The notes: a model not told the origin generated them from the letters alone. A stretch of DNA of 64,000 bases from Cyanophora paradoxa CCMP329 (GCA_004431415.1 QPMI01000182.1:92235-156234), one strand, 5' to 3'. Counted from the stretch's first letter, positions 3,001 to 42,341 are shown. A program made the numbers and translations.

Positions 3001-6000
3001 CTTCAACACTCGGTCCAAGCATGAGGGGGTCGGCATTCGGGAATTCCGGAACCGGAGCCCTTCGCCGGGGCCGACGGGCTGTCTACCACGACCGTGGGGG
3101 CGGCGTGATAGGTCCCCAGGCCCATGAGCCAGTCGGAGAACAGCAAGCTGCTGAACTCCGTGGGGCGGCGCAGGTCGAGGATCCTGGCCAGGCGGCGCAC
3201 GGCGACGCGGGGGAGCAACTTGATGGCCCGGAACCCTCAAGGTCTGAGCCGTGCTGCACCAGCTCGGACAGGTTCACGAGCGGCGGCTCCCCGGCCATGC
3301 AGCGAGCGCGGCGGCTGTTTTGCATGGCGATAACGCGCTCGGGGACGGTGCCCTTGGCGCGCGTGTCGAAGCACGTGGCTCCGGCAACCTCAGTCAGCCG
3401 CTCCGTGTATGTTTGGAACAGCGACAGTGGCGGGGCCACGTCCTTAGGGCTAATCCACGCGAAAAGGCTGCCCTTCTCGAATCCGAGTGCGCCCGGCAGC
3501 ACCGTAAGGGTCCGGAAACGGATTATGGCAAGCACAAGCTGCACGCAGTAAGCGTGGAAGTCGGAATCCTCGTCGAGGAGTTCGCGAGCCGCAGCGAGCG
3601 CTGTGCGCATGGCGTGGTAGCCCGTCACGGTACGGGAGACGTTCCCGTCGGGCGTAATGTCGAACCGCGGGTCGCCGTTTGGTTCGACCTGCAGGTGCTG
3701 GATCCCGGCCATTTCAGGCCGGCTGAGCGAGCAGGTACGCCGACGAAATGAGCAGGGATAGCAGCGGTAAACGCTCGCTGTCCGGCAGTGCGCTCGAGTC
3801 TGAGGCGAGGCCCCAGACGTTCGAGGCGGGCGCGTGCCGCTCCACGACAATAGCATGTCGTCCAAGCTTTCAGCGAGGCGACGTCGAGCTCATTGGGGTC
3901 GTCGGCCAAAGATCCTCAGGATCAGGGGCCGAGCCAATACCGAGCACTTGGTGACGGGGTGGCTGAGTTGGGCACCGCGGATTGCGAGCATCGCAATGCT
4001 CGAATCGGGGCCCTCCTGGAGGCGGTAATCGAGCTTGGCGATCGTCGCCGCAGCCTCGATCACGCAGGCGAGGGAGTGAGCCTCGGTGCGGTGAGCCAGG
4101 CGACCCAGCAGCAGGCGCTCGGGGCGCCGCAGGCCGCAGGCCCCAGGAACCGGTCAAGGGCTATGCTTTCGGGCCCTCCTGGGCGAGTTCGCGAACGAGC
4201 AGCGTCTGCTTCGCGTCGTCGAGGCCGTTCGTGAAGAGCAGCCCAATGGCGCGCTCTAGGTCACGGGGCTTGGCCGTCAAGTGGGCGTACCACTTTGTGA
4301 GCGGCATGAGCACCGGGCTCACGTAGCGGGGCAAGTAGGGCCCGCCTCGCGCTCGCCCTCTTTCTCCACGTCCGTGGCAGGCACGTGGTCATACGGCATG
4401 TAATCCAGTGCCCACGACTTCGTGGAGCACCGGGGTGGTGCCTGGGGCACGTCGCGGTCCGGAGAACCGAACGGCCCGAAATAGGCGGGCTTCGAGGTGT
4501 CGCTGGCGTAGGCGCGGAGCCCTGGCCAGGGTCGGAGCTCGGGGCGGACTCGGAGTCCGTGTCGAGCCGCTCGGCGTCGCTCTCCCCAAGCTCGGACTCC
4601 CCGGAGCCGTCCTCGCTGGCCGGGTTGGCGCAGCGGAGGTCCCGCTCGAACGCAGCCTCGCGAGTGGCATCGTCGAGGGCGCCAGCCGAGATGTCCGCCG
4701 CAGCGGCATCGAAGGCGGCCTGGTCGCGCGCCTTGGCGGCCATGGCGAGGGCGTCGGACGGCTGGCGGACCGCTGCAACGGCCGCAGCCTCGTCCGAGTC
4801 GGAATCCGTGCCCACGGGCATCACATGTACAGACAGCGACCGAATGGACGGGCCGCCCGGAGGGGCGCCGGCGTTCGGGTTGCCGCCTGCAGACGAGGAG
4901 CTGGCGCCACGCGCGCTCTCGTGCAGGGCGGCCTGCTGCTGCATCACTTGCAGGTGCTGGAAGAATGCAGCCATGGCGGCCGAGTTCGGCGAGTCAGAGC
5001 GGGGCTCGTTCTCGGCGCGAACTTGGTTGAACCGGGGCCGCTGCCCGCGGTTCATGTCCTGGCCGTAGCCCCGGCCGCGTCCGCCGCGGCCCTGTGACTC
5101 AGCGTCCGGGCAGTCCCGGCGGATGTGGTCCAGAGACCCGCAGGTCCAGCAGCCCGGCTCACGGTCGTCCTGGGCGCTCTTCTCCTTGCCCTTCCCAGCG
5201 GGCGCTGGTTCGGGCCGGAGGCAGGGGCGCGGGTGGCGCCGCCCGGCTGTAGCCGCCGCCGCGGTCCGGCCGAAGCCGCCGCGGTCGTTGCGGTAGCCGC
5301 CGCGGGCGTACGGCTCCTGGCGGTGCCCGCCGCGGTGCGAGAACCCGCCGCGGGTCGGGCCGGGCTCGCTGCGCTCATCGGCGGCATCCTCCTCGCGCGC
5401 CGGCCGATCGCGGCGCCGCGCGCGCTTATCCGCAATCCCTTTCACCCACTCGGAGTATGGGATATTGGGGAAGGGGGCCGTGCCCCACACGCAGTTCCAC
5501 GTAAAGTGGCAGCGGTCGAGGGCCGGCATCTCCACGTGCATGCACAGGGGGCATGGGGACGTGGTCGTGCTCGGGTACCCCAGGCGCTCCTCGTCGGGGT
5601 GCCGGCGACCCGCGACGGCGCGCCCTGCGGAGCCTTCGTGCCCGGGGCCGCATTGACGGACTTGACGGGCACGGCCTCGATGGGCTCGTCGCCGTCGTCG
5701 TCGCTGGCGGCGGCCGCTACCGGCGCCAGCTTGCGCACGCGGGCTTCTTAGCCTCCGGCGCCTCGAGTGCGGCCGTGGCCGTGGGGGGCAGCACGGTGCG
5801 GCAGCCGTGCGTCTTGCACGCTGCGACGAAGATTTCGTCGAGCTGGAGCGGCGACAGGGCGCCGTCCTGTGCAAGGATGCGCTGCTGCAGCGCGGCGAGG
5901 AACGCGCGCAGAGTGCGCTCGTTCGCCTGGGCGAACCCGGCCATCCGAACATCGAGGTTCTGATATTCCGGGTCCTCGCTCGTCGAGCGGGCCTCGAGCG

Positions 6001-6718
6001 CAGTGCGCAGACACTCCGCATAGTACACGGCGAGGCGCTGGCCCTGGGGCAGCGTGTGCTGCACTAGGGGCATGAACCAGTCATGCCATGAGCGCGGGTC
6101 CTCGCCCGTGTAGGGCTCAGTGAGAGCCCGGCGGGCCGCGTGCGGGCGCGTCTCATGAATCCATGCCGTGATCGTTGCGAGGAGCCCGGGGGCACGCAAG
6201 TACGAGTCACGCACGGCCACGATAGTGGCATGATCGCGCGCGCAGCTCTGCTGCAGCGCCAAGATTGCAGCCTCATCCTCGGCAGTCCGCAGATCAGCCG
6301 GGACAAGTCCGAGACGAGCGAGCAGGGCGCGGTCACGCTCCAGGCCAGCAATAGAGGCCTCATAGAGGTCGCGCTTACGCTCAATCTCGGCGCGGAGGGC
6401 GCCGGGGCGGATGCGCCCGACGATCACTCCGGCAAGCGCCTCAGACTTAGTATACTCCTGGCCGCCGGCAGTGTCCGGGCCAAAGAGATACTTCGTCGGC
6501 TGAGCCGACTGGAAGTTCCGGACATCCTTCCGGAACCGGTCACCGTCGGCGAGGCGCGGCTTCGCGGGGAGGAAGGCGATCCGCGCGGGATCATCCTCCG
6601 CCGCAGCGGCGGTGCCAGCGAGCTGCACAGCAAGTTCGGCCTTCGCAGGCTCAACGTGCGCAAGTGCGGACAGCTGGCTACGGACTTCAGAACTGATCAG
6701 TTCAGAAGTGTTCGACAT
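1..6718 (-). pseudogene. gag: Gag-like polyprotein, >2,000 codons, broken by multiple frameshifts
   Basis: Minus-strand ORF pieces 5717-6841, 5442-5738, 4261-6021, 3083-3865, 2414-3022 and 577-2085, plus an open frame from ~720 to base 1, join by single frame changes into one protein-like reading. It has a canonical zinc knuckle near 5110-5150, an elongated CPLC-x11-H-x4-C knuckle upstream, and RGG-rich stretches. Frameshifts may be decay or assembly indels. Confidence 0.65.
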
Positions 6719-7169
6719 ATTGCTCTCTTTGCAGCGTATAGCCACGAGAACAGAATGCCAGGGCACAAGATTTGAGCTGCAGCGCACTGCAGATCCGGGA
6801 CACGGTCTTCTCGTGGCGTGCGAGAACCGACTCAGGGACACTCAGAGAACTGCCGCTGGCAGACTCCGGGGCACAGTGTGCGACGCGAAGCGTGCAACCG
6901 GCGAAGGGACACAGACAATGATTGAGACTCTCGCGAGAGCTCGTGCGTGCGCTTCGGTCTGGGGATGCACCGAAGCCCGCGAGGGACACTAGAGTCACTT
7001 CCGAAGCACAATCAGCCCGCCCAGAGGCGACGCGGCCGAAGTGTGCAGCGTAGCACGCCACAAGTGGCGGTCGCCCGGAAAGCTCGTCCCAGATCTCTTT
7101 AAGCTTATGCGAGGCGGCGCGGCGAGGCGCGCGGCGCGGGCAGAGCCTGGAAGTCCAGCGACCCTTGAA

Positions 7170-7194
7170 GGTTCGATTCCGGCAGAATGGCGCC
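7170..7194 (-). other. Primer-binding-site candidate
   Basis: GGCGCCATTCTGCCGGAATCGAACC directly follows the LTR's CA end on the minus strand. Its complement reads like a tRNA T-loop plus 3' arm (GGTTCGATTCC...GGCGCC). Confidence 0.55.
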
Positions 7195-7477
7195 TGTCGC
7201 GTGCGAGATTAGTGTGTCTAATCGTGCGCGCGGGAAGCCCGTGCGGAGTGCAAGCTCGGCAGGGCGGGGTTTGGCGAGTGCTGCTGCTGTTAGCCACCGG
7301 GATGGTAGACTGAGGGTGTACCCGTCCAGCTACGGCGTACCCCGACACACGCATACAAGTGACCGCGGCGCTCTAACTAGCCTAGGCGCCGTCGATCTAG
7401 CAGCACGAAGGCTGCGCACATCATCTAGAACCCTAGCGGCTCACAAACGAGCATCCGCTATAATGTCGGATGCGACA
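7195..7477 (-). repeat. 5' LTR, 283 bp
   Basis: Starts TGTCGCGTGCGA and ends TCGGATGCGACA (10/12 inverted match). Same length, same ATGCGACA end and same TGGCGCC|TG junction as the paired LTRs at 31980 and 42059. Confidence 0.75.
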
Positions 7478-7768
7478 ATGTGTTCAACGGTTCGACGTTT
7501 ATGCACGAACTTGTAATTAAGTTGTAATTATATATTTTTTTTTGGTGAATTACCGGCCACAGTTTCTCGCCTCCGGCGGCGCTCACTTTGCGTACCCCCC
7601 CGCCGCCCTCTCGCTACCCCCCAAATCCCATTGGAGGCGATGGGCCCGGGGGACCGCATCGCCGAATGGGGCCCGCGGGGACCCAGAGGGTTGCGGGGGT
7701 TGCGGGGGGGCGCGGGGACGAGGGCCGGCCCGCGGGGGGGCGGAGGGGGGGAGAGGGGGCGGGCGGGT

Positions 7769-7892
7769 CCCTCTCGTCAGCGGGGCCGGGGGCGGGCCCT
7801 TGTGCTGAGCGAGGCCGGGGGGCGGCCCTTGTGCGTACCCGGGCCGGGAGGGGGCCCTTCTCGTCAGCGGGGCCGGGGGCGGTCCTTCTGGG
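7769..7892. repeat. Subterminal tandem array, ~29-bp unit, about 4 copies
   Basis: Units of the form CCCT(T)-variable ~11 nt-GGCCGGG(G/A)G at about 7769, 7797, 7826 and 7855. Confidence 0.7.
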
Positions 7893-8060
7893 CCCTTCTG
7901 GGGGTTTCCGCGCTTACAACCCCGTCCGTCGTACCCAGCGGTGTCAGCGGCGTGCGTGCGGCCCTGCTGGAGCCCTTCTAGAGCCCGAGCCCACCCCCTG
8001 CCGCCGCCGGGGTGCGAGAGAGGGGGGAGGGGGGCAATTTGTATTCAGACAGAGGAGCAA

Positions 8061-8354
8061 TCACAGGTCGCTAAAGTCGCCGCCCCGAGCATCCACCCGG
8101 CCTGACATCAGAGAGATAGGGAGCCGCTCGGCATACCAGGTGCCTAGCATAGCATCGATCAGGGGCAGTATCTCCTGTGAGAGGTTCGAGTAGACGTACT
8201 GTAGGTTCTGGTGGACGCTCCTGCCCACCGGATCCTTAGCCCATGCGATCGGGGCCGCTGCATTCCATACACTCGTGACCAGCAGATCCAGGCGCTCCAG
8301 CAAGTGCCGGTGCTCGGCGTCCGTCAGTTGGCGCGGGGCATGGATGGGAGGCAT
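8061..8354 (-). CDS. Orphan 97-aa helical protein of the HNH element
   Basis: ATG-to-stop ORF with natural amino-acid composition (unlike the R/G/P/A-rich shadow ORFs), followed by the element's repeated 3' motif. Confidence 0.6.
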   Translation of the reverse strand: MPPIHAPRQLTDAEHRHLLERLDLLVTSVWNAAAPIAWAKDPVGRSVHQNLQYVYSNLSQEILPLIDAMLGTWYAERLPISLMSGRVDARGGDFSDL

Positions 8355-8562
8355 TGGCTCACACGAAATGGGGCGTATTACGTAGCGCGCAGGGGGAACG
8401 CACTTAAGGTCGGGCGGGCCCCTTTCCGGACTTGGCGGGTCGCGGCGGTCTTCCGGAGCCCCCCTCCTTGACCTGAGCCCTACCCCCTAGGCCCGAGCCC
8501 ACCCCCTGCCGCCGACGAAGTGCGAGAGAAAGGGGCGCAAAAGGGCTCTGAATTCGATACAT

Positions 8563-9225
8563 CTACAGGCGGCGGCGGCGGAGGCGGCTGCCCTCTACGG
8601 AGAGCGAGTCGGGGGTGCCAGCGGGGAAGGTGACGGAGGCCTTCCGCTTCTGCGACCACCAGCCCTTGAGCGCGCTCTTGGTGGGCGACGACTCCTTGAG
8701 CGCCTTCTTGCCCGCCTTGGCCGCCTTCCTGGCCACCTTCTTCGCCGCCTTCTCGTCCTCCGACTCGGGCTCCGAGTTCTCCGACTCGGGCTCCGACTCG
8801 GGCTCGGGCTCGGGCTCGGGCGACTCGATCTGTAGGGGTACGGGCTCAGAGGGGGGCACGAGGGTAGAGGCAAAGGGGCTCACCTCAGGGTCGGCCATGG
8901 GGGCGGGGGGCGAAGCGGGCGAAGCGGGCGGGCTGAGCTCCTTCTCCATCTTGACGACGATCGAGGCGGCCTCGGCGGCGGTCACGATGGCCTCGACCTC
9001 CTCGACGAGGGCGGGGCGCCTCCCGTCGACGAAGGCAAAGGTGGCCTGCCGCGCCTCCTCGGTCATCTCGCCGAGCTCCTTCCTGACCGCTTCGATCGTC
9101 GCGGCCCGGTGGGGGCAGCGGAACTGGAGCCAGGCCATGTAGAGCTGTGCAGGGGCTCGCGTGAGATGGAGGCAAGGGCTTGCGTGAGACAGAGGGAAAC
9201 GGCGGACCTCGGCGTTCTCCTTCAT
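8563..9225 (-). CDS. Orphan ~200-aa protein of the HNH element: helical N-terminus, acidic PE/SE repeats, basic tail with NLS-like end (RLRRRRL)
   Basis: Clean ORF with GC3 bias; probable in-frame 63-nt intron 9145-9207 (GAG|GTCCGC...CTCAC...GCACAG|CTC). Confidence 0.65.
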   Translation of the reverse strand: MKENAEVRRFPLSHASPCLHLTRAPAQLYMAWLQFRCPHRAATIEAVRKELGEMTEEARQATFAFVDGRRPALVEEVEAIVTAAEAASIVVKMEKELSPPASPASPPAPMADPEVSPFASTLVPPSEPVPLQIESPEPEPEPESEPESENSEPESEDEKAAKKVARKAAKAGKKALKESSPTKSALKGWWSQKRKASVTFPAGTPDSLSVEGSRLRRRRL

Positions 9226-9392
9226 GTCGCAGGGCGGCTCCTTCTCGAAGGGAAACTCCGGATCGATTCCGGGGCCGGAGGGGATAAGGGAGGCAGAGGA
9301 GGCAGAGGTCTTTCCGGGGTTCTGACCTATCTAAATAATCACGTACCCCCCTGCACGTGACTCACCTGCACGTGACCGTCCTTTTTCGGTCT

Positions 9393-9779
9393 CCGCCGGT
9401 TCGCGCGGGTCGGTGCGTGACGTCACTCCCCGTCACCGATCGGCAACCGGGGTACCGCTGCTGCTACTTCGACGGGTCCGGTGGCGGTGTGCGGCACGAA
9501 CCGTGACGGGGTGCGAGTTCGGCAGCCGTGACGCACGCGAGACCCTGCAAAATCGCGGGCGGTTAGTCTGTAGGGTGCGCGCGGCAGGGTAGCGACCTGT
9601 GCCGACCCCCCAACGTCAGTGCGGACCCGTACCCCCCCGGGTAATGGGGGGGCGTGAATGCGGAATTCACCCACCCCGAGCCGCGAATCGCAAACCCTGG
9701 CCCTGTAGCGGGTGGTGCTCGCGAGCCTAATCCCGCTCGAATGTCGGCGGCGGCACGTGGTCAGGCAGGGGGTGCGATT
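9393..9779 (+). ncRNA. Candidate structured RNA (or ssDNA structure) inside the HNH element
   Basis: Nested stems found by eye: 9398-9405/9682-9689, 9407-9414/9601-9608, 9415-9422/9527-9534, 9428-9436/9503-9511, 9454-9461/9481-9488, 9542-9549/9569-9576, 9632-9638/9646-9652, 9654-9659/9665-9670, 9686-9692/9773-9779. Non-canonical pairs are mostly G-U on the + strand. Confidence 0.5.
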
Positions 9780-9810
9780 GAATGGTGTACAGGCGACCTA
9801 CCTAGGCGGC

Positions 9811-10884
9811 CTACTTGCCTACGAGCTCGAGGTTGAGCCACTGCGACGGTGGGTCCGCCTCCCTGTGCTCGCCTGGGATGATGCCGCCCGTCATCTCGTA
9901 CCGCCCGCGGACCTTGGTCACCTCCTTGGCGGTCTCGGAGTTGCAGCCCTTGCAGAGGATCCGCAGCGTCTTCGGGTACGCCCGGTGGTAGTCCGCGAAG
10001 AGGGACGTAAGGAAGGGCGGGTCCGTTTCGACCACGACGGGCAGGAGCGGGTGCCACGTCTTCTCGCCGGGGCCGGGCGGGCGGGCGCGGATGCCGACGA
10101 CCGCGCGCTCCCCCGTCGCCTCCTTGCGGGTCAGGCAGCGGCTACGGCAGAAGGCGAAGAGGATATCCGTGAAGTACGCCGGGCCCATGTGGTCGACGTG
10201 GAAGGTCTCCTCGCCCTCCGCGGCACCGCAGCCCTCGCAGGTCAGGCGCGCCGCCGCGGACTTGCGGGCCCGGTAGAAGGCGCTGGTCTCGGGCTCGATG
10301 GCCTCCCGCATGAGCGCGTTCCAGCAGGCGGAGAGGATGGTCGGGTAGCGCGCCTCCGAGGCGTTCCAGTCGTTCCAGAAGTGGCACGTGCCGTCCTTGA
10401 GCTCGAACGCCAGCCGCACCGGCCCGTCTCCCTCCTCCCACTGCGGCCGCCTCGGGTTGCGGGGCGCGTCGCTGATCTGCCTCGCCGCCCACTTGGGGAG
10501 GCGGAAGGCCAGCAGGCGCTCGATCTCGCCCGCCCGGAGCCGCCGCGGGGCCGGGCCGTGGAACTCCGCGTAGACCGCCAGCGCCGTCCGCAGCGCCTCC
10601 GGGGGCATCCGCACCACCCTCACGGGCCGCTCCGTCCCCGCAAACGTCACCGTCACGAGGGGGCAGCGCTCGTCCCGCAGCATCCGCTCGCCCTCCGCGC
10701 GGACCTCGGCCAGCATCTCGCCCATCCGCTTGAGTGTCGGTCGCTCCGGCGGGTCGCGCATGGCGATCTTGACCGGCACGCCCGGCAGGTGGCTCGTGCT
10801 GCGTCGCTTGGGCGGCGATTCGTCGTCGCTGAGGTCGATCGCCAGGCGCGCCGGGTGCCGCTTCGGGTCGGCGCCGCGCTTCAT
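9811..10884 (-). CDS. HNH endonuclease with probable N-terminal DCL/DUF3223-like domain
   Basis: Motifs CEGCG...FHVDH.GP..F...FADYH....LRILCKGCN (Zn-binding HNH with a long insertion). Upstream RLAFELKDGT...SAC and ALMREAIEP resemble DUF3223-HNH proteins as I recall them. Intronless; likely start MKRGADPK at 10884 with TAAATA ~50 nt upstream (the ORF track start is 10953). Confidence 0.8.
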   Translation of the reverse strand: MKRGADPKRHPARLAIDLSDDESPPKRRSTSHLPGVPVKIAMRDPPERPTLKRMGEMLAEVRAEGERMLRDERCPLVTVTFAGTERPVRVVRMPPEALRTALAVYAEFHGPAPRRLRAGEIERLLAFRLPKWAARQISDAPRNPRRPQWEEGDGPVRLAFELKDGTCHFWNDWNASEARYPTILSACWNALMREAIEPETSAFYRARKSAAARLTCEGCGAAEGEETFHVDHMGPAYFTDILFAFCRSRCLTRKEATGERAVVGIRARPPGPGEKTWHPLLPVVVETDPPFLTSLFADYHRAYPKTLRILCKGCNSETAKEVTKVRGRYEMTGGIIPGEHREADPPSQWLNLELVGK

Positions 10885-11445
10885 TTTGGGTCTCGCCGAG
10901 TCCTCGGAGTGCCGCGAATGGGCCCGCGAACCCCTATTTATGCTGCCGTCCATCCTCCCAGGACCCTCGGGCCGGGGCTCCTAGTACCCTCGGAATCCGA
11001 TGTTAGGATCCCAACGCGTTTTTTTCGGATCCGAGCCCAATCCTCCTCGCACCTCGGCGGCGGCAGGGGGTACCCCCCAATCAGCCCGGCCCCGCTCCAG
11101 ACAGCGGCCGTACCCCCCCCCCCCAGGCCGCCGCGCCCCCCGTGACCTCCGTGAATCCGTGACGCGTGTGCCCCCTCGCTGCCCTTCCGGAGTCGACCGC
11201 CGCCCGTACCCATCCGCGCGGGCGAAAGGGGGTACGCGCCGACCTAGGGGGGTACGCCGGCCTCGCTGCAGCCCTACCCCCCGCCCCCCGCCCTCCCATC
11301 GGGTCTCCGCGGGGTCCATTCGCGAGAGGGGGGGTACGGGCCATCGCCGCCAATGGGGGCCTAGCGGGGGGGAAGAGGGGCGGGGGGGTACACGCAAAGT
11401 GACCCGCCCGCGAGGGCAGAAGTCTCTAGAAGTTGTAATTATATA

Positions 11446-12111
11446 AGTTGACGATGACTTAACGTTCAACCGTTGTAAGTTAACTTGTAATTATAAGTTG
11501 TAACTTGTAACCCGGTACTGGACTGAGTGACCGTCTGGACCTACTGGCCATGGTGTACCGTTGAAGACTACTACTGGCTACTCAGTGACTACTAAAAGTA
11601 CAGTACGGTATAACTTGGCATTAAGTTGGCAACTGCCAGGCTGGCAAGTTGATGTACTGTACCGTAGAACAACGTTAACGTTAACGGCGCGCATGCGCAT
11701 GCGGCTGCCCGGTGCCATGCGCTGCGTGATGCGCAACGCCCGCGGCCCCGGGCCCCGACGTCGACGTGTACGAATCGGCGACGATCGGCGACGATTCGGC
11801 GTCGATTTAAGCTGCAATTGACAATTCGGCGTTCATGATCACGCATATGCGCGTCGACGTCCGACGGTCGCGATCGACCGTCGACTCGGCGTCGAGTTAC
11901 TGAGTCGGCCGCGGGCGTCGAGTCGCCGTCCGACGGTCGACTCCCGGTCCGGACTCCGGAGTCCGGACTCCGGAGTCCCGGAGTCCAGAGTCCAGAGTCA
12001 GAGTCGAGTCGGAGACTCGGAGTCGCCGAGTCGAGTCGGAGACTACTGTCACTAAGTACTACCGGTCCAGTAGTAGTACCGGACCAGTACCGGTAAGTAG
12101 TACTCTAGCTA
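11446..12111. repeat. Low-complexity palindromic tract
   Basis: Short words recur in both orientations (AACGTT/GTTAAC, GAGTC/GACTC, TCCGGA, GTAC/TAGTA). Confidence 0.7.
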
Positions 12112-12113
12112 TA

Positions 12114-12371
12114 CCGTGTAACACTTAATTAATGCGCCAGTAATTAATGCGTTTTTGGACCCCGACCCCGATTATGGCTATTAATGCGGCACCGAATTAA
12201 TGCGTTTTGCAGCTTTTTGGCTGCGTCAGGGGGGTACGTATGTGTACAAACCGCAGTTTTCTTAGCGTATCAATATTAATGCGGTTCCAAATTAATGCGT
12301 TTTGTCACCAAAAAACGCATTAATTTGGGACCGCATTACTTAAGTGCGCGCATTACTTAAGTGTTACACGG
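12114..12371. mobile_element. MITE, Tc1/mariner-pogo type, 258 bp
   Basis: ~24-bp TIR CCGTGTAACACTTAA(T/G)TAATGCGC, TA on both sides (12112-13, 12372-73), many internal TTAATGCG/CGCATTA motifs. Confidence 0.88.
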
Positions 12372-12874
12372 TAGTCGGAGTCGAGTCGTGCTGACTGAGC
12401 CTGACTCCTGCTGCCGCAGTGCAGACTCTCACTGCAGAGTCCACGGTCCTGCACCGTGCAGCGGCGTGCACGTGGTCCGTGGATGCCGACGATCATGCCG
12501 TCAATAATTGCAATATCATACTTCCTGTCCGTGGCAATCCTGTCCACTATCATTACCACCAATGAAGTCATCATGGCATAATAGTATCATCATATTATTA
12601 GTATGTCCACTATCATGGCGTCACGCCGTCAGCTGCAGCCTGCAGGCTGCAGCCTGCTGCCAGCTGCAGGCTGCAGGCTGCAGCTGCAGGCTGCAGCGCT
12701 AGCGTCCGACGGACTCCGGGACCGGCGACCGTCGGACGGTCCAGTATTTTCCTGTTACCGTAGTACGCAGTGGCACCCCGCTTTATATGTACAACACGCC
12801 GGCCCGTCGCCGGGCCCCGTAGTACACGGCCCGGCGGTATCGAACATATATATTATGATATAACGTACTTTAGC

Positions 12875-13095
12875 TACGGTTAAACACGTACTTATATTTT
12901 TATTAATGCGCAAGAAATTAATGCGTTTTTGGACCCGAACCCCTTATGGACCGAATTAATGCGTTACAGGGATATACTGTCATATACAGCATTTTCTTAG
13001 CGTTTCGATATTATAATATAATGCGGTCCCAAATCAATGCGTTTGATCGACAGCAAAAACCGCATATGCATTAATTTTGGACCGCATAACTTCAA
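12875..13095. mobile_element. Degenerate second copy of the same MITE
   Basis: Collinear blocks ATTAATGCGTTTTTGGACCC, CCGAATTAATGCGTT, TTTTCTTAGCGT and GGACCGCAT shared with 12114-12371; TIRs eroded. Confidence 0.75.
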
Positions 13096-18229: not shown

Positions 18230-19242
18230 CCCCGCGGCCGCCGCGTGCAACCCGATCCGGGCTCAGCTGCAGCTCATCGCACACGGTCTGGTGTGTGGAG
18301 CCGTAGCGCGCGCGAACCGCTGGCCCCGGCGCGCCTCGGGCGCCGCCTCCAAGCCCGAGGTCCGGTGCGAGCCGCCGTATTACTACGGTACCTTACGCTT
18401 CCGAGCCGCTGTGCCGGCGCGCGCCTCGCAGCCGCCGCGGCGCGCGCTTGGAGCACTAATCATGCGTCCGGGCAGGCGGCAGGGCGCGCGGGAGGGGCTG
18501 GAGCGCGCCGGCGCCAGCGGGCGGGCGCTCCGGCGGCTCGGGGAGGCGCAGAGGCGGCGCGGGCTCCGTCCGGCCCCGCGCGATCGCAGCGGACTCTTCT
18601 CTTGTCCTTTTCGCTAGCGAGTGTGCTCTGGACCCGCGCCGCCACCTCAGGGCCGTCTAGATCTCCCGCCCCTCTCACACCCCGGCCGAACAGTATTTTC
18701 AATGTACCCATCCGCCACGGCGCCGCCAGGTCCCATCGAGCGCACCACTGGAGTACCCTTCTCATTCCCGATCGAACCGTGTGCGGCACGCAGTGGGGGT
18801 GAGTCCGAAGTACCCGTACCCCCCCTGCCCCCTCCGGACCCGACCTTCGCCCCAGGACCCCGTTGGACTTTTGCCCGCCCCTCTCGAGCGCGGCGGATCC
18901 GATGGTGCGCGCCTCGCCGCCCGTAGCTGCAGCCCCGAGGCGCTGGAACCGAGGCCGGCCCTCCGACCAGGTACCCCGGCGCCCCTGGGGCCGGCCCGGG
19001 GGGCGGAAGGCCCCGGAAGGGGGCGGGGGGCGGGACGATGCGCCGGAGCGGAGCCGGAGAAGGGCGAAAGGGCGGGCGGCGGCGCGCTGGAGCCAAGCCG
19101 GCGCCGCGGTCGGACGGTGCGAGCGCCCTCGCGCCCCGCCGCTCGCGCGCGCCGCCCTCTGAAGCGGGCTCCCAGAGGGCCCGGAACCGTCGCAGCTGGG
19201 CGAGGAAGTCTGGCCGAGACGCGCGCAGACCGCGGAGCCCTC
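18230..19242. repeat. Dispersed ~1-kb direct repeat, copy 1
   Basis: Collinear and highly similar to 26635-27568, with scattered substitutions and indels. Confidence 0.9.
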
Positions 19243-26634: not shown

Positions 26635-27568
26635 ATCCGCGGCGCCCCGCCCGACCCAATCCGCGCTCAGGTACAGCTAGCGCTCCGACCGCACACAATT
26701 TGGAAAGCCAAGCTGTACGTACCGCGCGCGAGCCGCTGGCCCCGGCGCGCCTCGGGCGCCGCTGCCAAGTCCGACGGCCTCTTGCGAGCCGCCGTGCCTT
26801 CCGAGCCGCTGTGCCGGCGTGCGCCTCGCAGCCGCCGCGGCTCGCGCCTGGAGCACTTCTCATGCGTCCGGGCAGGCGGCAGGGCGCGCGGGAGGGGCTG
26901 GAGCGCGCCAGCGGGCGGACGGTCCAGCGGTTCGGGGAGGCACAGAGACGGCGCGGGCTTGTCCGGCCCCGCGCGATTGCAGCGGACTCTTCTCTTGCCC
27001 TTTTCGCTAGCAAGTGTGCTCTGGACCCGCGCCGCCACCTCAGGGCCGTCTAGATCTCCCGCCCCTCTCACACCCCGGCCGAACAGTACTTTCAATGTAC
27101 CCATCCGCCACGGCGCCGCCAGGTCCCATCGAGCGCACCACTGGAGTCCCCTTCTCATTCCCGATCGAACCGTGTGCGGCACGCAGTGGGGGTGCGTCCG
27201 AAGTACCCGTACCCCCCCTACCCCCTCCGGACCCGACCTTCGCCCCAGGACCCCGTTGAACTTTTGCCCGCCCCTCTCGAGCGCGGCGGATCCGATGGTG
27301 CGCGCCTCGCCGCCCGTAGCTGCAGCCCCGAGGCGCTGGAACCGAGGCCTGCCCTCCGAGCATGTACCCCGGCGCCCCCGGGGCCCGCCTTGCGGCCGGA
27401 GGCGAACGCGGCGGAGGCCCCTCGCCGCGCCGCGGTCGGACGGTGCGAGCGCCCTCGCGCCCCGCCACTCGCGCGCGCCGCCCTCTGAAGCGGGCTTCCA
27501 GAGGGCTCGGAACCGTCGCAGCTGGGCGAGGAAGTCTGGACGAGACGCGTGCAGACCGCGGAGCCCCT
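26635..27568. repeat. Dispersed ~1-kb direct repeat, copy 2
   Basis: Matches 18230-19242. Confidence 0.9.
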
Positions 27569-31979: not shown

Positions 31980-32262
31980 TGTCGGATAGGAGGATTCCCA
32001 CCCGATTGGGCGCCCGCGCGGTCCAGCGCGGGGCCGGCTCCCTGTGCTGGAGCAGCTGTAGATGCAGGCTGGTGTATTCTCTGTGTACCCGGAAGACTAC
32101 TGACACTGTACCCCTAGGATAGGTAGAGGCAGGCCAGCGTAGGCTACCGCGAGGTAAACCTACAGGAAGAGAGACTATGCTAAGGCACCGTAGACTGCGT
32201 CAGGCACCAACTAGCTCTAGTCACTAAGTCACCGCAAGGCCAGGGAATCGAGCCATGCGACA
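31980..32262 (-). repeat. 3' LTR, 283 bp
   Basis: TGTCGGATAGG...CCATGCGACA, identical to 42059-42341. Confidence 0.95.
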
Positions 32263-42058: not shown

Positions 42059-42341
42059 TGTCGGATAGGAGGATTCCCACCCGATTGGGCGCCCGCGCGG
42101 TCCAGCGCGGGGCCGGCTCCCTGTGCTGGAGCAGCTGTAGATGCAGGCTGGTGTATTCTCTGTGTACCCGGAAGACTACTGACACTGTACCCCTAGGATA
42201 GGTAGAGGCAGGCCAGCGTAGGCTACCGCGAGGTAAACCTACAGGAAGAGAGACTATGCTAAGGCACCGTAGACTGCGTCAGGCACCAACTAGCTCTAGT
42301 CACTAAGTCACCGCAAGGCCAGGGAATCGAGCCATGCGACA
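42059..42341 (-). repeat. 5' LTR, 283 bp
   Basis: Identical to 31980-32262. Confidence 0.95.

Follow-up and report, generated by a model that had tools for sequence, protein, structure and literature searches.

What kind of mobile element, if any, occupies positions 7519-11445 of a 64,000-nucleotide (nt) stretch of the Cyanophora paradoxa CCMP329 genome (GCA_004431415.1, QPMI01000182.1:92235-156234; hereafter, the window)? Eukaryotic transposons are sorted by a few pairings of enzyme and end signature, and an earlier inspection of this DNA by itself (the sequence-only reading) had proposed that the segment belongs to none of them, being an HNH nuclease cassette with a 16-bp target duplication and no transposase or reverse transcriptase (RT). 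Our analysis indicates that the segment is, with little doubt, a real mobile insertion. It is probably non-autonomous and was rather likely mobilised at the DNA level. As a tentative overall explanation, we favour an internally deleted DNA element that was moved in trans by an HUH/rolling-circle (Helitron2-like) enzyme, with nickase-assisted integration. Once mobility, non-autonomy and the DNA level are granted, HUH chemistry itself stands at about even chances or slightly better. The family to which the element belongs is likely an undescribed, low-copy and modular one, whose ends fit no known class fully.

Boundaries and ends of the insertion

The word AAGTTGTAATTATATA is repeated exactly at 7519-7534 (left copy, the putative target-site duplication, TSD) and 11430-11445 (right copy), with no other copy on either strand of the 64-kb window. 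The two copies enclose 3,895 bp of 70% GC, while the flanks have 32% and 43% GC. The longest word shared in 2000 dinucleotide shuffles of both junction regions was 13 nt, which places the flanking repeat described in the sequence-only reading beyond what shuffling produces. The flanks alone have 11 nt in common, and 7 of the 12 plus-strand TTGTAA words of the window sit at the two element junctions. These local repeats raise the background at the junctions, yet they leave the 16-nt match unexplained because the shuffles stop at 13. The seven clustered words lie in 7511-7527 and 11433-11510; TGTAA is an algal polyadenylation signal, so the insertion target may be a transcript-end region.

Read contigs were taken from four of the 20 runs that contain the element and aligned at 85% likeness. 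The right junction was spanned by a single contig with 0-1 differences in all four runs (in run X1, by a difference-free piece covering 11393-11954) and is therefore no assembly artefact. Among the contigs listed for these runs, no piece spanned the left junction or the whole element and no second TSD was seen at another copy; no empty site was seen either, in runs that had been picked for containing the element. Two read joints place the left end in other contexts, from 7533 and 7538, without the 16-mer; their sides are short, and they speak weakly for a TSD and against a terminal repeat.

The left end opens with nine T residues (7535-7543, plus strand; A9 in gene sense) followed by GGTG, just as had been described. 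This is one of just two T runs of at least nine in the window, where A runs of that length are absent, and neither AATAAA nor TGTAA occurs within 370 nt upstream of the A-run in gene sense. After a 20-nt terminal segment (7544-7563), the left subterminal inverted arm covers 7564-7709 (plus strand); its partner at the right covers 11277-11421 (minus strand). The arms agree in 115 of 156 alignment columns (74%), with a score of 80 against 20.9±2.8 in 300 shuffles; none of 566 real window segments scored above 40. The diverged inverted repeats of the sequence-only reading are thus present, at about 150 nt each instead of about 170, and they begin 29 nt in from the left element end and 8 nt from the right one. 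The right end closes with CTAG (11426-11429) followed by A; this word has 8 copies in the element and 181 in the window. A GCCC-GCGA-GGGC hairpin does precede it, at 11406-11417 and 8 nt away rather than about 10, but the favoured fold is a different one: a 32-nt stem-loop at 11380-11411 (plus strand), 18 nt from the right end, which is the strongest prediction among 770 windows within the element (z -3.7).

Genes, relatives and the predicted internal deletion

Three open reading frames (ORFs) lie in the same orientation on the minus strand. The claim of three co-oriented genes holds well for the nuclease gene and ORF2, which have homologues and a high GC content at third codon positions (GC3, 0.95 and 0.90). 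ORF3 (8061-8354, minus strand; 97 aa) is weakly supported as a gene, with a GC3 of 0.74, no family and no exact database entry, where no search for homologues was made.

The nuclease gene (9811-10953, minus strand) encodes a putative DUF3223(DCL)+HNH protein, P0001, of 380 aa from the ATG at 10953 or 357 aa from the ATG at 10884. In the 357-aa numbering, the candidate active site comprises C216/C219, H229-x-D231-H232 and C311/C314/N315, in keeping with the His-Me finger motif CxxC..H-x-D-H..CxxC-N. Residues C216, C219, H232, C311, C314 and N315 are invariant in all eight aligned proteins and D231 in seven of them; the active site is retained in six full-length homologues at 31-69% identity, and catalytic and zinc ligands persist over identities of 32-47%. 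As the sequence-only reading had it, the protein is the only recognisable enzyme of the element; its motif is intact. A profile search of 1.84 billion representatives returned six matches: the protein itself, three full-length relatives (32-37% identity) and two shorter proteins bearing DUF3223 (E 1.5e-4 and 7.2e-4; 23-25% identity). P0001 gave no direct Pfam match for DUF3223; Endonuclease_7 was matched in three of the eight aligned proteins, with a best E of 0.003. The Atlas search placed P0001 with viral DUF3223/HNH clusters at a score of 0.90, and these clusters are 47-86% viruses.

A structural model built from eight sequences reached a predicted local distance difference test (pLDDT) value of 73.4; a first model from three sequences (pLDDT 44.9) was not used. 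The top fold match was 2k0m, which we take to be a DUF3223 structure, to residues 42-188 (Z 6.3, root-mean-square deviation (rmsd) 4.8, 97 aligned). Residues 177-329 match HNH nucleases, among them the nicking enzymes T5 SciA (Z 5.7, rmsd 3.9, 100 aligned) and GVE2 HNH (Z 5.7, rmsd 4.3, 81 aligned), as well as T4 endonuclease VII (Z 3.9). Proteins of the cyanophages S-CBWM1 and S-TIM5 also match the model (E 5e-5 and 2e-4). Foldseek against the PDB gave nothing at E<=0.001, solved structures searched by sequence gave four weak and unrelated matches, and PHROGs gave weak HNH matches alone (E 0.12-0.27). Motif, profile, language model and fold concur on a predicted DUF3223+HNH nuclease, at modest Z-scores. 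Judged by sequence, it is of the phage/giant-virus type with intact metal ligands and predicted activity. With the viral DUF3223(DCL)+HNH proteins, T5 SciA and T4 endonuclease VII it shares a DUF3223-like N-terminal fold and a zinc-binding His-Me finger; it differs from the viral proteins in its length of about 350 aa, in an extra N-terminal basic/acidic segment and in its place within a eukaryotic, TSD-flanked element.

No longer fused form of the nuclease appeared among 7994 scored candidates, in a weak search. Relatives were found neither in viral contigs (queries A1, P0009, P0010 and the left-end motif) nor in metagenome contigs (queries A1 and P0006) or phage records. In a tree of nine proteins, which was not used to infer origin, the nuclease family was monophyletic with respect to the DUF3223 proteins but internally open, with long branches flagged.

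ORF2 (8563-9309, minus strand) encodes an acidic/basic low-complexity protein without a Pfam family or an Atlas match; its ATG lies at 9225, and homology to a paralogue, P0005, extends to 9309. The probable spliceosomal intron that had been noted at 9145-9207 (minus strand; 63 nt, GT..AG, in frame) has been removed in two database gene models, and the entry P0004 equals the window ORF2 minus this intron. One related read contig carries 1-2 additional letters inside it. A second predicted intron (8830-8883, minus strand; 54 nt, GT..AG, in frame) is missing from the P0005 model. At the nuclease N-terminus (10800-10845, minus strand) we observed the words IDLSDDE and PPKRR, and in residues 14-27 of P0005 the words IIDLT..SDDE; these resemble SUMO-interacting and nuclear-localisation motifs.

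P0005 carries 52 more N-terminal residues than the window ORF2, and its alignment to the window starts at residue 53 (9309), near the start of a unique contig (9279). The adjoining segment, 9310-9720, lies under one contig at single-copy depth and would be the junction of an internal deletion or rearrangement. This copy thus appears, from its sequence, to be internally deleted, and a longer form may exist. A self-contained new class, as proposed in the sequence-only reading, is accordingly unsupported by this copy, in which ORF2 lacks residues 1-52 of its paralogue; its second option, a satellite of a larger element, is therefore favoured. P0002, a nuclease homologue, and P0005 correspond to the gene models g1135 and g1151 on one contig (tig00000459), 16 gene models apart and in the same order as in the window. 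Inside the unique segment, at 9546-9597 (minus strand), there is an intron-like stretch with an ACTAAC branch word and a TTTTGCAG acceptor but no ATG upstream; it is perhaps a remnant of a deleted gene.

A single copy with no empty allele would, according to the sequence-only reading, have refuted its claim; the element is not a single copy, as relatives occur in reads and in the proteome. The Cyanophora paradoxa proteome (EukProt) holds two further nuclease genes and one further ORF2 gene, and the two closest nuclease homologues and both ORF2 matches are EukProt proteins of this species. Identity between P0001 and P0002 is 95% in the first 39 aligned residues but 41% in the following 299, while P0002 and a further homologue, P0003, are 69% identical over the 299-residue body. 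The nuclease body therefore appears to have been exchanged between family members.

In run X1, long, unique and difference-free pieces stand at a depth of 66-76; the depth is 199 at 11359 and reaches 125 over 8550-8754. One contig of 705 nt follows the right arm for 214 nt, with 23 differences and 9 gaps, and stops at 11402, which suggests that relatives have the final 50 nt, including the stem-loop, more closely in common. The contig across the right junction begins at 11392-11393 in all four runs. The joints 7975>8550 and 7950>8459, present in four of four runs, bypass ORF3, which some relatives apparently lack, and deletions at 10885-10900 in one contig agree with P0002 having the shorter linker. 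The joints 8752>11213 (side of 28, low-complexity) and 7131>7533 (side of 21) were too weak to be taken as deletion copies. The window itself holds no other copy of the element. We read these data as a handful of modular relatives and give no closer figure because depth is no copy number, the joint sides are short and 15 of 37 joints are listed.

At 8620, 8661, 11167 and 11359, every aligned contig of the four runs differs from the window letter, and at 8661 the contig letter replaces W189 of ORF2 by the R found in P0005. These positions could be errors of the assembly, differences between strains or the effect of a filtered contig.

Candidate modes of mobilisation

A 16-bp duplication implies staggered nicks. 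We suggest that the element's own DUF3223+HNH nuclease, rather than being passive cargo, would nick the target twice, 16 nt apart, and that repair would then duplicate the 16 bp. We know of no strand transfer, joining or copy step that such a nuclease could provide alone, and a partner is therefore likely. The ends resemble those of rolling-circle elements, which is why we prefer HUH-type copying in trans; the stem-loop with CTAG at one end and the T-tract at the other would be the cis signals for the HUH enzyme. A larger parent may exist, perhaps the copy on tig00000459, where 16 gene models separate the homologues of the nuclease and ORF2. Mobilisation as DNA is favoured because introns are retained, polyadenylation words are lacking by the A-run, the arms are long and the copy seems internally deleted; the DNA-level insertion of the sequence-only reading is in this respect probably right. 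The AT-rich insertion target also counts for this explanation.

The insertion resembles proto-Helentron, HINE, DINE-1 and HLE2 elements, with which it shares a T-run and CTAG as ends, offset subterminal inverted repeats and a stem-loop near one end. Proto-Helentron begins with 5'TT and ends with 3'CTAG, and HINEs combine offset subterminal repeats with a 3' palindrome and a variable number of T residues; no TSD is given for either (PMC4067079). The TT at 7535-7536 and the terminal CTAG correspond to the first of these, so that the end pair is already known from proto-Helentron. Deletion derivatives and captured genes are a further likeness to Helentron-type elements; the inverted repeats of HLE2 measure 11-18 nt, and one family of this group carries a GIY-YIG nuclease (PMC11417382). 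The premise that elements with a hairpin and CTAG make no TSD was too strict, as Replitron-1, an HUH element, makes variable TSDs (PMC10288648). Replitron-1 is also similar in its size of 3-4 kb, algal host and hairpin near one end. The insertion differs from Replitrons in having no HUH Rep family among its ORFs, long inverted arms and, by inspection of the ends, no evident terminal direct repeats.

Several points weigh against the rolling-circle explanation. No Rep or helicase gene was found in the element or in 18 other scanned ORFs of the window. Target-primed reverse transcription is what a long TSD together with a 3' A-run in gene sense usually indicates. The structural Z-scores of the nuclease are modest and target nicking is a prediction. 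TSDs are unreported for Helitrons, proto-Helentron and HINEs in the sources at hand, and the arms, which here are offset and accompanied by a stem-loop as in HLE2, far exceed the inverted repeats of that group. HLE1 elements start with 5' TC and close with a 3' hairpin and CTRR, whereas here the end opposite the hairpin and CTAG reads T9-GGTG; the A|T insertion of HLE1 and proto-Helentron without TSD contrasts with the 16-bp repeat and the A after CTAG, and the T|T insertion of HLE2 and Helentrons with the TSD and with a presumed empty site that has no T-run. The start of the bridging contig at 11392-11393 would fit relatives that diverge near 11422-11423, just before CTAG, and CTAG may therefore not be a shared terminus. 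The 16-model gap on tig00000459 could equally reflect a nested insertion or two neighbouring or separate copies. Finally, summed read depths do not give copy numbers and contain GC-rich matches that arose by chance, and the joint sides are 21-35 letters.

A non-autonomous retroelement, mobilised by target-primed reverse transcription with a Penelope-like or LINE (long interspersed nuclear element) RT acting in trans and perhaps with the HNH protein nicking the target, is the rival that survives best, and we regard it as rather improbable. A 16-bp TSD and, read in the direction of all three ORFs, a 3' A9 are what a LINE-mobilised retrocopy or short interspersed nuclear element (SINE) would have, and LINEs make up 2.47% of the host genome (PMC6704402). 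In such a copy, however, introns should have been removed, while the DNA here has two predicted GT..AG introns. Penelope-like elements keep their introns, so the premise that a retained intron argues against an RNA intermediate was too strict; they also form inverted repeats at their flanks, one end is often extended by 30-40 bp, and the 3' ends of non-autonomous Chlamys elements are common with those of their partners (PMC8557442). The left end here extends 29 nt past its arm, and one run contains eight contigs with loose ends behind 7567 (agreement 0.63), so several sequences may share the terminal segment. Against this, the element has neither RT nor GIY-YIG, no tandem pseudo-long terminal repeat and an A-run unlike Naiad or Chlamys, and its arms are 74% alike, although repeats that arise together in a single retrotransposition should hardly differ. 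The element has no Rfam match at E<=1 and no hammerhead core; that core is mostly missing in Naiad and Chlamys too. Neither AATAAA nor TGTAA stands near the A-run, and three gene units would have to be crossed by a single transcript.

It is also unlikely that the segment is a deleted derivative of a large element with terminal inverted repeats (TIRs), either a polinton-like virus (PLV) or a giant DDE or tyrosine-recombinase transposon, with the nuclease as viral cargo. The families nearest to the nuclease are viral (the Atlas clusters and both cyanophages above), and PLVs occur in Cyanophora paradoxa (PMC10120064; PMC8502044), for which a supplement value of 366 can be read as capsid-gene matches (PMC10120064 Tables S1/S4). 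TSD-like flanks of 7-23 bp were reported on 10 of 232 tyrosine-recombinase PLVs, in one cryptophyte cluster (PMC12220804), and such viruses share with the insertion long inverted arms and a viral-type HNH protein. The gap of 16 gene models and the mosaic identity of P0001 and P0002 would fit a larger parent as well. In contrast, PLVs are 14-40 kb long and carry capsid, packaging ATPase, polymerase/helicase and integrase genes, none of which is present in these 3.9 kb, and no relative was found in the scanned viral contigs or phage records. The arms are diverged and stop 29 and 8 nt short of the ends although the TSD is exact; GC content and GC3 (0.9-0.95) are host-like, spliceosomal introns are present, and the T9 and CTAG ends are left unexplained. 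DDE transposons are known for TSDs of 2-11 bp, a range that 16 bp exceeds, and for inverted repeats that extend to the termini; the TSD of Mutator is fixed at 9-11 bp.

Of similarly low probability is a wider new class, in which a virus-derived DCL-HNH nickase serves as the integration nuclease and makes cuts 16 nt apart, whether with host repair only or in partnership with a rolling-circle enzyme, and in which its body is swapped as a specificity cassette. The narrower form of this idea, a self-sufficient element whose DCL-HNH protein makes staggered nicks at which host repair would take up a linear or single-stranded copy, without any transposase or RT, seems to us quite doubtful. The nuclease is the sole enzyme, its active site is kept in six homologues, and its body was apparently swapped between near-identical flanks; no longer fused form came up in the weak search. 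Yet the nuclease would by itself lack strand transfer and a copy step, and the present copy seems truncated, with hints of a larger parent. The nucleases known as cargo of eukaryotic elements, such as Fanzor, are accessory. The same is true of KolobokP, which resembles the insertion as a eukaryotic DNA element with a His-Me finger nuclease but has a DDD/E transposase and long terminal direct repeats (PMC9587614), neither of which was found here.

It is very improbable that there is no transposition unit at all, and that DNA was captured once during repair or AT-rich repeats happen to pair around a mix of repeat fragments: the TTGTAA clustering, the 11 nt shared by the flanks and the absence of an empty allele would suit it, but none of 2000 shuffles reaches 14 nt, the repeat coincides with the GC step, the T9 and the significant arms, and relatives share arms and genes.

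We return to the rolling-circle explanation with a partner in trans. The sequence-only reading, which knew of no class combining these features, is supported in that each class tested misses at least one defining feature. DIRS elements have an internal region complementary to both termini; here, terminal segments scored 17-23 against the interior, within the range of shuffles (18-19, maximum 24-30). By the features tested, the insertion works most like a non-autonomous, nuclease-carrying element and is no member of HLE1, HLE2, Replitrons, Penelope-like elements, PLVs or KolobokP. A full-text literature search, which left most subscription journals and Repbase outside, found no account of this element or of DUF3223+HNH in a transposon; within that literature the element is undescribed, and it is probably dependent. 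If the explanation is true, the element would show a new pairing, in which Helitron-like ends occur with a viral HNH nuclease and a long TSD. The family resides in a public glaucophyte genome (haploid, 99.94 Mb, 25,831 genes, short introns) in which unclassified repeats are given as 11.5% (PMC6704402). It offers a testable context for DUF3223+HNH proteins, with six divergent nucleases that may differ in target.

Internal motifs and neighbouring elements

A 26-nt motif occurs in the element in three copies, where none would be expected: m1 (7983-8027, core 7993-8018, minus strand), m2 (8491-8535, core 8501-8526, minus strand) and m4 (11032-11071, core 11046-11071, plus strand, inverted relative to m1 and m2). 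A degenerate fourth copy, m3 (9722-9761, plus strand), is 80% identical to m4. ORF3 lies between one direct pair of the motif and the nuclease gene between another, each pair being inverted relative to the other. In gene sense, m1 and m2 are followed by CTAG at 7978 and 8487. The four copies and the left end fold no better than shuffles, and m1 and m2 were therefore dropped as candidates for extra Helitron ends. Four imperfect tandem units of 29 nt each occupy 7763-7878.

A retrotransposon long terminal repeat (LTR; 7189-7478) lies 40 nt from the element, and a small element with inverted repeats lies about 670 nt from it. The LTR, of 290 nt with TG..CA ends, belongs to a minus-strand retrotransposon at 4261-7478 with gag-like ORFs (zinc knuckle, E 1.8e-4), an internal read depth about 20 times that of single-copy DNA and no second LTR in the window; a tRNA-like stretch ahead of the LTR (7155-7188) forms a long primer-binding site. 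The small element (12112-12373) is a high-copy, 262-nt sequence resembling a miniature inverted-repeat transposable element (MITE); its inverted ends of 26 nt agree at 96%, and it has a palindrome inside. A related MITE-like stretch lies at 12899-13092, and reads link the 262-nt element to the left end of the studied element elsewhere. A second LTR element of about 10.4 kb has identical 283-nt LTRs (31980-32262 and 42059-42341) and a 5-bp TSD (CTGCT), with no Pfam match in the two internal ORFs scanned; the word GGCGCC precedes the LTR in both LTR elements. Finally, a direct repeat of about 1 kb with 83% identity is present at 18232-19240 and 26637-27566.

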